A stretch of DNA of 64,000 bases from Candidatus Nanosyncoccus sp. (GCA_045530815.1 JAZSCU010000024.1:65-64064), one strand, 5' to 3'. Counted from the stretch's first letter, positions 30,020-33,083 are shown. Notes: generated by a model not told the origin, from the sequence alone. Numbers and translations are program-made.

Positions 30020-30238
30020 TTGGCACAATTCACCTTCACTGGCATCGTTAACCTGCCACCGGTACCATATCTTGGCACCTACCTCTCTGCTATCAGCTGT
30101 TTCGCCTTCTTTGGCGCTTATATGACTCTCACCCTGATGCCTCTTCAAAAAATCCCCTTTAAGGATCCTGTTACCGGTCAATACGGCTTTCGCGCTCACC
30201 GGAATTTTTTTAAAGCTCTTAAGAAAAATAAAAAATGA
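30020..30238 (+). CDS. Possible small membrane protein or gene fragment
   Basis: Hydrophobic open frame that extends upstream without an ATG; no SD or promoter seen. Confidence 0.25.
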   Translation: MAQFTFTGIVNLPPVPYLGTYLSAISCFAFFGAYMTLTLMPLQKIPFKDPVTGQYGFRAHRNFFKALKKNKK

Positions 30239-30276
30239 GCATTGACTCCATCTATGATAAATGGTATAATAGTAAA

Positions 30277-30570
30277 ACTAGCTGTCAATTGTAACTTAAA
30301 AACGGTAACTCTTTTTTATCAAAACTAAACCGCCCTAGGCGGAAAACCTTAATTCATCGATGAAATTGAAAAAGTAACAAGAAGTTAAGCACAAAAAAAG
30401 AGATTACTAGCACCGTGGAATTTTCCACAGAGAGAAAGGAAGGAAAAACTGGGAGGAACATTTTAGTTTTTAGACCGTGTAGGTGTTTTATAGGTTTAAC
30501 CTTTCGGAAGTTTATCTAAAATTGTCCCCTTCTTCTCTAGTACATTTATATCCGCTTCGGCGGATTTTTT
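30277..30570 (+). ncRNA. Candidate structured ncRNA (about 290 nt)
   Basis: TGGTATAAT at 30262; long-range stems; ATCCGC-TTCG-GCGGAT terminator + T tract; no ORF. Confidence 0.5.
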
Positions 30571-30776
30571 CATTTTTTATTAAATTTATCCAAATTAAAT
30601 AAGGGCTTTTTGTCGCCGTCAATAATTCCCTGCGCTTTTCGCACCAGCTTTTCGAGCGCCGCCTCAGATGCCGCTGAACCCACGTGCACAGTCTTTACAA
30701 CGTGATTCCCTTCCTTGTAGCACACCTGTACCCCAGTCGCCCCCGAAGTCGTCTTAAATTTCCGAATGTAAGCCAT
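30570..30776 (-). mobile_element. Stand-alone 68-aa ORF resembling the N-terminal domain of IS1634-family transposases
   Basis: MAYIRKFKTTSGATGVQV..VKTVHVGSA.SEAAL resembles the IS1634 N-terminus as recalled (not searched); intact TGATACAAT promoter 6 nt upstream; no DDE domain. Confidence 0.6.
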
Positions 30777-30812
30777 ACCTTAATTGTATCATAACCAAGT
30801 TTGACTTATTCC

Positions 30813-30985
30813 CTAACCCCAAATTTTTATTTGCATTGAGCAAACCCGAGAAAGTTTTTATGGGATTTAGGAAAATTTAACTCGCGAACCGTGAAGACAG
30901 CCGTGAGACGAGCAAATTGTCCGTTAAAAATCCCATAAAAATTTTACCGGCGTGAAGCGAAGCGCAAATAAAAATTAGGGTTTAG
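30813..30985. repeat. Rod-shaped palindromic element (about 173 bp), homolog of 45161-45335
   Basis: Stems AATTTTTATTTGC/GCAAATAAAAATT and TTTTTATGGGATTT/AAATCCCATAAAAA; loop motifs shared with the 45161 copy. Confidence 0.88.
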
Positions 30986-31003
30986 TGATTAACCCAAACA
31001 TGC

Positions 31004-31045
31004 TTATGCACAACAAATCCACAAGCTTTTTCCACAAAAACCACA
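31004..31045 (+). promoter_or_regulatory. Cluster of co-oriented DnaA-box-like 9-mers
   Basis: TTATGCACA 31004, AAATCCACA 31015, TTTTCCACA 31028, AAAACCACA 31037. Confidence 0.4.
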
Positions 31046-31136
31046 AGCAAAATTAGACTAATTCCCTTGTGTCTAGCAACCACCTCGCCTGGCAACCGCA
31101 CTTGACAAACAAAAAAGCTCAAGCTAAAATAAAACC

Positions 31137-32468: not shown

Positions 32469-33083
32469 CTACCAAATCGCATTAGCGATCTCTCTAGCAT
32501 AGTCCAATTGACTAAGCGGGGTATTACTAATGATCCCCATCCCGCTAAGAAGAATATCTAAATTATCTTCATTAATCAATCGGCTAACCAAATGATTAAC
32601 GTCCTCCATACCTCTAGGGTTCCCCTCATGGTAAAAGGTGGAATATTTGATCTGGAGTGGCTCAAAAATCAGCATAGTCTGAAGCAGCGACGATTTAGTT
32701 AAATTGTCCTTAACTTCAACAGACATTTTTCCTCTTGGAGGTTCAATGGACGCAGCCAAAAATGACCGTGTACAAACTGCACCGTTTTTGCGCAATACCT
32801 CAAGGGTGTTTAAATATGAATGAATATTGTCCATTTCTGCAATGGAAGAAATTTTCAGACTGTATCTTGAAATCAAATCGAGTTTTTGCTCCATCTCGGG
32901 ATCCTCTTCGCCATATTTATGCCAATACATCACAAAATGATCCTTGACCAGCGCGATATTAGTATCTCTGCGCTTTTCTACGGCCCAGGTCTTCCCAAGA
33001 CTGTCTTGAGCCAATACATCCTTAGCCTCCTCGTAGCCTATACCACTAATGTTCAACCTTACTACAAGTTTCTGATCTTTCAT
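32469..33083 (-). CDS. Hypothetical protein (204 aa)
   Basis: AGGGAGGT SD, own promoter-like region, terminator downstream. Confidence 0.7.
   Translation of the reverse strand: MKDQKLVVRLNISGIGYEEAKDVLAQDSLGKTWAVEKRRDTNIALVKDHFVMYWHKYGEEDPEMEQKLDLISRYSLKISSIAEMDNIHSYLNTLEVLRKNGAVCTRSFLAASIEPPRGKMSVEVKDNLTKSSLLQTMLIFEPLQIKYSTFYHEGNPRGMEDVNHLVSRLINEDNLDILLSGMGIISNTPLSQLDYAREIANAIW

Follow-up and report, generated by a model that had tools for sequence, protein, structure and literature searches.

The plus-strand interval 30277-30572 of the window (the whole 64,000-nucleotide stretch that was analysed, which is contig C10 of an assembly that comprises 743 kb in 34 contigs and is 92% complete) is best read as the gene for a stand-alone, trans-acting structured small RNA (sRNA) of about 295 nt. 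We put the probability of this reading at roughly 0.6. The sRNA gene would probably be new and narrowly distributed, and the non-coding unit as such is very probably real and under selection. By its sequence the interval has the generic attributes of an sRNA gene: its own promoter, an intrinsic terminator and no coding capacity. The sequence-only reading had proposed an undescribed non-coding RNA, possibly partnered with the neighbouring small protein. The first half of this proposal is supported as the likeliest reading, as no Rfam family matches, no ORF is conserved, promoter and terminator are kept and the unit is constrained. The partnership found no support in the comparison of genomes that is described below. 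Proteins homologous to those encoded in the window carry the name Candidatus Saccharibacteria. The coordinates of all features are collected in Table 1.

Table 1. Features of the non-coding unit and its surroundings (positions in the window unless a contig is named), with the identity between the window and lineage L101 where it was determined.
Feature	Position	Strand	Sequence or pairing	Identity to L101	Remarks
Strain-variable segment	23149-30248				7.1 kb, between the valS stop and the RNA unit
72-aa ORF, membrane-like	30020-30238	+			Left neighbour of the RNA unit
Promoter, sigma-70 type, extended -10	30242-30270	+	TTGACT-17-TGgTATAAT	100%	11/12 hexamer matches plus TG
Predicted non-coding transcript	30277-30572	+			About 295 nt; no conserved ORF; no Rfam match
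Closing helix	30290-30296 with 30539-30544	+	UGUAACU with AGUACA		RNAalifold consensus
Domain-1 stem, 5' arm	30304-30317	+	GGTAACTCTTTTTT (RNA GGUAACUCUUUUUU)	93-94% (arms)	
Domain-1 stem, 3' arm	30394-30408	+	AAAAAAGAGATTACT (RNA AAAAAAGAGAUUACU)	93-94% (arms)	
Domain-1 apical part (interior)	30318-30393	+		61%, with indels	Variable, with indels
Inner hairpin	30330-30342	+	CCGCC-CTA-GGCGG		Inside domain 1
Palindrome/inner hairpin	30353-30364	+	TTCATCGATGAA		Inside domain 1
Hairpin segment	30408-30429			82%	
Hairpin	30415-30428	+	GTGGAATTTTCCAC (RNA GUGGAAUUUUCCAC)		Between domains 1 and 2
DnaA-box-like 9-mer	30421-30429		TTTTCCACA		Overlaps hairpin 30415-30428
Domain 2	30431-30538	+	Outer stems AGAGA/UCUCU and GGAAG/CUUCC	83%	
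Terminator segment	30542-30572			79%	Hairpin stem invariant
Intrinsic terminator	30550-30565 (stem); T tract to 30578	+	ATCCGC-TTCG-GCGGAT		
68-aa ORF	30570-30776	-			Convergent right neighbour; homolog of IS1634-family transposase N-terminus
femAB-like gene	from 31380				Beyond the 68-aa ORF
RNase P RNA (RF00010)	C15:9745-10079				228 bits
tmRNA (RF00023)	C15:13622-13975				103 bits

The extended -10 element that had been pointed out upstream of the unit was recovered by a consensus scan, which placed both the TG and the TATAAT within 30242-30270. From this promoter a transcription start at about 30276-30278 is expected. At a lax threshold the scan gave 4 sites with 3.7 expected, which is not beyond chance. 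When all 743 kb of the genome were scanned under a strict criterion, which demanded the TG and a match at 11 or more of the 12 hexamer positions, 35 sites were found against a mean of 1.55 in block shuffles, an enrichment of about 23-fold. Of these 35, 23 lie no more than 60 nt from an ORF start, ORFs of 50 aa and more being counted. Only two sites, that at 30242 among them, have no such ORF within 400 nt. By this genome-wide criterion the promoter is beyond chance. It is 100% identical in the metagenomic lineages L101, L102 and L103. Strain L044 has an equivalent at the same position, TAGACA-17-TGtTATACT; the promoter region of this strain is only about 65% identical to the window, yet the -35 hexamer, the TG, the -10 hexamer and the 17-nt spacing are all kept.

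At the 3' end, the UUCG terminator with a T tract that had been described as abutting the stop codon of the convergent ORF was confirmed at 30550-30572, where the T tract overlaps the TGA stop (30570-30572) of the 68-aa ORF. The U tract is good on the plus strand and poor on the minus strand, and the terminator stem is invariant across all lineages. The long-range pairings that had been listed for domain 1, the small hairpin and domain 2 were likewise all found in place, and the long-range complementarities appear in the minimum free energy (MFE) fold. The domain-1 stem, between 30304-30317 and 30394-30408, comprises 14 pairs and one bulged A. Domain 2 is closed by the imperfect pairing of AGAGA/GGAAGG (30431-30443) with CCCCTTC/TCTCT (30526-30538) and contains a local 11-bp hairpin (30444-30454 with 30461-30471) that is followed by two more hairpins; it is rich in Shine-Dalgarno-like tracts (AAGGAAGG, GGGAGG) and in UCCC-type pyrimidine tracts. 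The helix that would close the whole structure (30290-30296 with 30539-30544) is invariant in all lineages save for one strain change. In the model that we propose, RNA polymerase with the housekeeping sigma factor would start at the extended -10 promoter, at about 30277, and stop at the intrinsic terminator at about 30570-30578, which would also keep plus-strand transcription out of the convergent 68-aa gene. The transcript would then consist of a short 5'/3' closing helix, an invariant 14-bp stem with a fast-changing tip, a small hairpin and a multi-branched domain 2.

A promoter and a terminator at these places could also be accounted for if the interval were the 3' tail or terminator region of an upstream plus-strand gene (valS in L044, the 72-aa ORF here) and its RNA a functionless product of an incidental promoter. 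The 72-aa ORF ends 3 nt before the -35 hexamer and the gap holds no terminator; valS of L044 stops 85 nt before the conserved block, and in this strain no clear terminator precedes 30550; and convergent genes need a terminator anyway. This explanation is nevertheless unlikely. The promoter belongs to the 35 strongest of the genome, and behind three different upstream genes either this promoter or an equivalent of it is present. Moreover, about 180 nt beyond what a terminator requires are under constraint, and where valS directly adjoins the small ORF, as it does in some relatives, only about 5-45 nt suffice.

The unit lies within a variable-cargo hot spot between valS and the 68-aa ORF. In this genus valS and femAB almost always accompany the small ORF, the gap between valS and the small ORF measures from a few bases to 3.4 kb, and the orientation of valS varies. 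No analogous RNA unit was found in these gaps in relatives; their fillers are heterogeneous and mutually unrelated (a SIS gene, a PIN/MazE pair, small membrane ORFs, orphans). In the window the gap is occupied by the 7.1-kb strain-variable segment, which carries a 1075-aa orphan, a 239-aa ORF, a 168-aa ORF, a GNAT gene and the 72-aa ORF and which is missing from strain L044. Its edges were checked and showed no flanking direct repeats, nor does it contain an integrase. The GNAT/72-aa end is common to the window and L101 at a dS of 0.13-0.45, which suggests that this end has recently been exchanged. On the far side of the unit, upstream of the 68-aa ORF, a palindromic stretch of about 212 nt (30794-31005) was noticed that looks like a MITE-type insertion. 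In its place most relatives (L048-L060, L098-L106) have about 10 nt; L101 keeps the segment at 75% identity. An Rfam match to MIR8007 in this stretch is just the long hairpin.

The distribution of the unit is narrow. In the near-identical strains L044, L046 and L047 the block 30272-30570 is about 99.7% identical to the window and everything to the left of it differs. Two metagenomic lineages carry homologs, namely L101 and L102/L103, both found via the small-ORF allele P0005. L101 shares the left neighbours of the window (the GNAT gene and the 72-aa ORF) and L102/L103 have a different one. As the left neighbours differ among the carriers, the unit stays with the small ORF while the cargo to its left changes. 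The contigs of this organism derive from SRR29514811, SRR29514808, SRR29514844 and ERZ27234995. BLAST searches with the DNA of the unit were negative in 36 genomes of the same genus, in 24 genomes from other families of the order and in 368 other species of the genus. From the 3' half (the hairpin, domain 2 and the terminator) a covariance model, R1, was built; in these 368 other genomes it returned no more than 5 short hits, with E values of 4e-4 to 0.01 per genome, which is about chance. Exact-word scans of metagenome, genome and viral collections returned nothing or chance hits only. A mobile or repeated element was rejected as an identity of the unit, which is present in a single copy in the genome and gave nothing in phage and plasmid collections. 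As far as these searches reach, the unit would be confined to only three closely related lineages.

How strongly the unit is constrained was estimated from the comparison with L101. Over 288 aligned positions there are 48 mismatches (K about 0.19), and the blocks GTAACTTAAAAACGGTAACTCTTTTTT, AAAAAAGAGATTACTAGCAC and CTTTCGGAAGTTTATCTAAAATT are invariant. In the flanking genes dS amounts to 0.96 at the start of femAB and to 1.19-1.35 in the small ORF, a highly conserved gene with a dN of 0.03 and a dS above 1. An identity of 75-79% is likewise seen in the neighbouring non-coding DNA that precedes the small ORF, and in this respect constraint is not unique to the unit. To the left, the 72-aa ORF has a dS of only 0.13, which implies that this side was recently exchanged; such an exchange, and not selection, may explain part of the conservation of the promoter and the 5' end. 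It cannot be the cause of the conservation of 30392-30572, since this part is flanked by the diverged interior of domain 1 on one side and the diverged small ORF on the other.

Part of these observations would fit a non-functional relic, such as a spacer left behind or cargo in decay at a recombination hot spot, with a promoter that is orphaned or there by chance. The unit is found in one subclade only and in none of 368 other species of the genus, its position coincides exactly with the border of the 7.1-kb strain-variable island, its folding energy is unexceptional and other relatives have unrelated fillers at the same spot. We regard a relic as improbable, given a K of about 0.19, where the flanking genes have a dS of about 1 or above, and a pattern of invariant stems with variable tips. 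Six-frame translations compared with the loci fetched from relatives and with the rest of the genome gave no significant match either (best E 0.034), and on this ground a decayed IS1634-like gene or pseudogene was rejected as well. IS1634 transposases do not match the flagged interval; their match in the window is confined to 30579-30776. The preferred reading is that the sRNA gene either originated in, or was acquired by, a single small subclade within a genus of gut Saccharibacteria and that selection would have kept it there.

Whether selection acts on an RNA fold was judged from the structure and its variation. Folding energy beyond that of shuffled sequences was not seen: z was -1.1 for the whole unit on the plus strand, -1.5 on the minus strand and -1.1 to -1.8 for the plus-strand domains. 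The alignment consensus obtained with RNAalifold comprises 71 pairs in 11 helices, 64 of which pairs are invariant. Five vary on one side, all still pairing as G-U on the plus strand, and two have one broken cell each. None of the 71 pairs changes on both sides in this count; shuffles equal the observed values, a comparison which with some 2-3 lineages is without power. By eye, one compensatory change could be recognized, from CCGCC/GGCGG to CCACC/GGUGG (G-C to A-U) in both other lineages. This change was misaligned by MAFFT. In domain 1 all 14 pairs of the stem are invariant in the three lineages while the enclosed sequence diverges, and several MFE helices inside this domain are broken in relatives. 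The changes in domain 2 convert G-C to G-U or A-U to G-U, by which pairing is kept on the plus strand only; the loop of the domain-2 hairpin changes from AAC to GUU and one consensus pair is broken in L101.

A clearer signal came from pairing probabilities that were calculated from the window sequence alone, the relatives having had no part in the choice of the structure. On the plus strand the mean pairing probability is 0.37 at the 81 positions that vary in L101/L102 versus 0.62 at conserved ones (Mann-Whitney p = 5e-7, Fisher p = 2e-6), a difference that no circular shift reaches. On the minus strand the corresponding values are 0.59 and 0.56 (p = 0.33). That conservation and pairing are linked on the plus strand only points to selection on the plus-strand RNA fold.

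For the hairpin 30415-30428 the evidence runs in another direction. Its GUGG/CCAC stem is kept and its inner A-U pairs are lost in L101-103, in which lineages the overlapping 9-mer TTTTCCACA becomes a perfect DnaA box, TTATCCACA. These changes favour a DNA motif (a DnaA box) over RNA pairing at this place. DnaA-box-like 9-mers (TTWTNCACA) occur at 30421, 31004 and 31028, so that a stretch of 610 bp about the small ORF holds three of them. L101 has retained each of the three, and the one at 31028 is present upstream of the small ORF also in the distant L048, L054, L060 and L104. Beyond this 9-mer no motif was found that is common to the unit and the region upstream of the small ORF. The main cluster of DnaA boxes of the window is at 3.7-5.3 kb, presumably oriC. 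A replication origin at the unit was rejected in view of this cluster and of a GC skew that does not switch here.

The unit could be a DNA-level element, a regulatory spacer with binding sites for proteins such as DnaA or the IS1634-N-like protein. Besides the 9-mer that is retained and perfected at the expense of the hairpin and the further boxes, the domain-1 arms, which form an invariant inverted repeat, would suit such an element. This, too, seems improbable to us for the unit as a whole. DNA sites predict neither a strand-specific link between conservation and pairing nor changes that preserve G-U pairs on the plus strand only; in addition, the genome has no further copies of the arm motifs, and the position of the main box cluster and the GC skew do not fit.

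The coding potential of the unit is negligible. Its only ATG ORF has 5 codons (30360, MKLKK), as had been noted before. Further ORFs are a 34-aa GTG ORF on the plus strand and a hydrophobic 35-aa ATG ORF on the minus strand, and one could imagine that a small protein is encoded, either from a leaderless or non-canonical start or as a type I toxin on the opposite strand. This is hardly credible, as none of the ORFs has its start, frame or length preserved in all three lineages and a properly spaced Shine-Dalgarno sequence is missing. Nor does the transcript, by prediction, begin with a start codon, which sets the unit apart from the leaderless mRNAs of the genome. A type I toxin-antitoxin system was rejected specifically, as the 35-aa minus-strand ORF loses its start and frame in L101/L102.

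The convergent 68-aa ORF had been labelled IS1634-like, and this label holds. The ORF has more than 1500 metagenomic relatives of similar length (82-94% identity). Searches of 37 genomes of the genus found it in 27, and searches of 24 other families of the order did not find it. More weakly related sequences, with 44-47% identity over residues 1-61 and E about 1e-5, are the extreme N-termini of IS1634-family transposases, and the proteins concerned match the NCBIfam model for this family, e.g. P0174 at 224 bits. On this evidence the ORF is taken to be a domesticated stand-alone N-terminal module and not a decayed insertion sequence.

A partnership between the RNA and this protein, as a ribonucleoprotein or through gene regulation by convergent transcription, would agree with the arrangement in all 7 of the 7 contigs that carry the RNA, where it is convergent with and abuts the small ORF, and with the overlap of the two 3' ends at the terminator. 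When co-occurrence was checked, the ORF proved to be genus-wide and the RNA absent from the 368 other species of the genus; the RNA is missing even from most close alleles of the 68-aa ORF. With nearly all homologs of the protein lacking such an RNA, and adjacency being expected from vertical descent in one subclade, we hold the partnership to be very improbable. More doubtful still is an elaboration of it in which the RNA combines a conserved scaffold with an exchangeable segment and acts together with the neighbouring protein, as a domesticated DNA-binding module from the IS1634 N-terminus, at the hot spot between valS and the small ORF. This idea stems from L101 and L102, which are nearly identical over the rest of the unit and have a domain-1 tip that can hardly be aligned; the tip might for this reason be read as an exchangeable specificity segment. 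If true, it would represent a hitherto undescribed type of site at which insertion or exclusion is guided or marked by RNA.

As to known RNA families, the statement that the unit shows no signature of RNase P RNA, tmRNA or 6S RNA was borne out. In the window only 7 tRNAs score at the gathering threshold of any Rfam 15 family. With lax filters, the matches in 30100-31100 that overlap the unit score 13.8-18.9 bits (E 3.9-9.6), far below the cut-offs. RNase P RNA and tmRNA are encoded elsewhere, on contig C15, and the 6S model RF00013 finds nothing in the genome or the region. 6S RNA was rejected on this basis, as well as for the fold, which is multi-domain and not a single long hairpin, and for the absence of the unit from other species of the genus. 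SRP RNA was rejected similarly: RF00169 and RF01854 match neither the region (E <= 10) nor any other part of the genome, and the unit lacks conservation across the genus. More generally, absence from 368 congeneric species means that the unit is not a housekeeping RNA. What it shares with 6S and SRP RNA is that it is a strongly promoted candidate for a small stable RNA in a genome where RF00013, RF00169 and RF01854 find none. As an aside, RF00169 gave nothing at E <= 0.1 in 21 genomes of the genus (G000 plus 20), and control genomes do match; either the SRP RNA of the genus is very divergent or the first pass of the search misses it.

A sponge for CsrA was considered on account of an enrichment in GGA motifs (8 versus 3.3 expected, p = 0.012) and a weak alignment with rsmX (14.7 bits), in which the unit resembles CsrB and RsmX/Y/Z. 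It differs from these in that most of its GGA motifs lie in predicted stems and no CsrA was found in the genome, the best and weak hit of the homolog search being inside a pilin-like protein. The absence of a CsrA gene and a gathering score of 56 for rsmX led to the rejection of this candidate. T-box leaders resemble the unit as non-coding promoter-to-terminator units of about 290 nt, and in L044 the unit adjoins valS. Unlike them, it is located downstream of valS, is not followed by a gene on its strand and has no T-box sequence. A T-box riboswitch was rejected for want of a downstream plus-strand gene and of an RF00230 match at E <= 10. Since there is no gene downstream of the unit on the plus strand, a cis-regulatory leader is excluded.

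The closest parallels are perhaps to be sought among trans-encoded sRNAs of Gram-positive bacteria such as Staphylococcus aureus RNAIII and RsaE/RoxS. Like these, the candidate has its own promoter and a Rho-independent terminator, several stem-loops, UCCC-type pyrimidine tracts and Shine-Dalgarno-like purine tracts, is non-coding and has a narrow taxonomic range. Unlike these, it has no sequence or covariance-model match, and its C-rich tract should, by prediction, be base-paired within the molecule and not exposed, whereas RsaE/RoxS present C-rich seed motifs; moreover, an Hfq gene was not found in the genome. With the orphan RNAs OLE, raiA motif, ROOL and GOLLD it has in common that it is unannotated, bounded by promoter and terminator, apparently folded and without an Rfam family. 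It is far smaller than those RNAs (about 295 nt) and occurs in three close lineages only. Furthermore, its folding energy is unexceptional and its covariation almost nil.

The candidate sRNA would act as a trans-acting riboregulator or as a protein-binding RNA. A search for antisense matches in the rest of the genome produced no convincing target, the longest match being 14 nt, as chance predicts. There are two matches of this length, which is about the chance expectation. One of them concerns a nearly leaderless gene (G000:C25:96720-96741), the codons 2-6 of which (ATGAGTAAAAAAGAGTTAC) are perfectly complementary over 14 nt to 30305-30318 in the 5' arm of the domain-1 stem. Saccharibacteria are ultra-small and host-dependent, and their regulatory RNAs are practically unexplored; a search of the paper library found nothing on them. 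The candidate would add a young, lineage-restricted sRNA gene and with it a view of the birth of an sRNA in a cargo hot spot of a streamlined 0.74-Mb genome. With its narrow distribution the find is modest.

The strict promoter criterion may have a wider use, as it picks out candidate RNA genes in Saccharibacteria genomes. On the minus strand of G000:C18, at about 32690-33039, a promoter TTGACA-17-TGaTATAAT heads some 340 nt without an ORF, which end in the hairpin ggctcaggtaGTGCCCACCCatacctgagcc (loop GUGCCCACCC) followed by T6. This second unit adjoins a dprA-like ORF, with pth beyond it, has no Rfam match and shares no sequence with the unit at 30277-30572. Other strict promoters without an ORF start within about 200-400 nt are located at C2:4285(+), C18:46606(+), C19:3791(+) and C25:122848(-), all four again without an Rfam match. 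Some of the ORF-less strict promoters precede terminator-like hairpins, as does the one at C18:46606, which would head a unit of about 55 nt.
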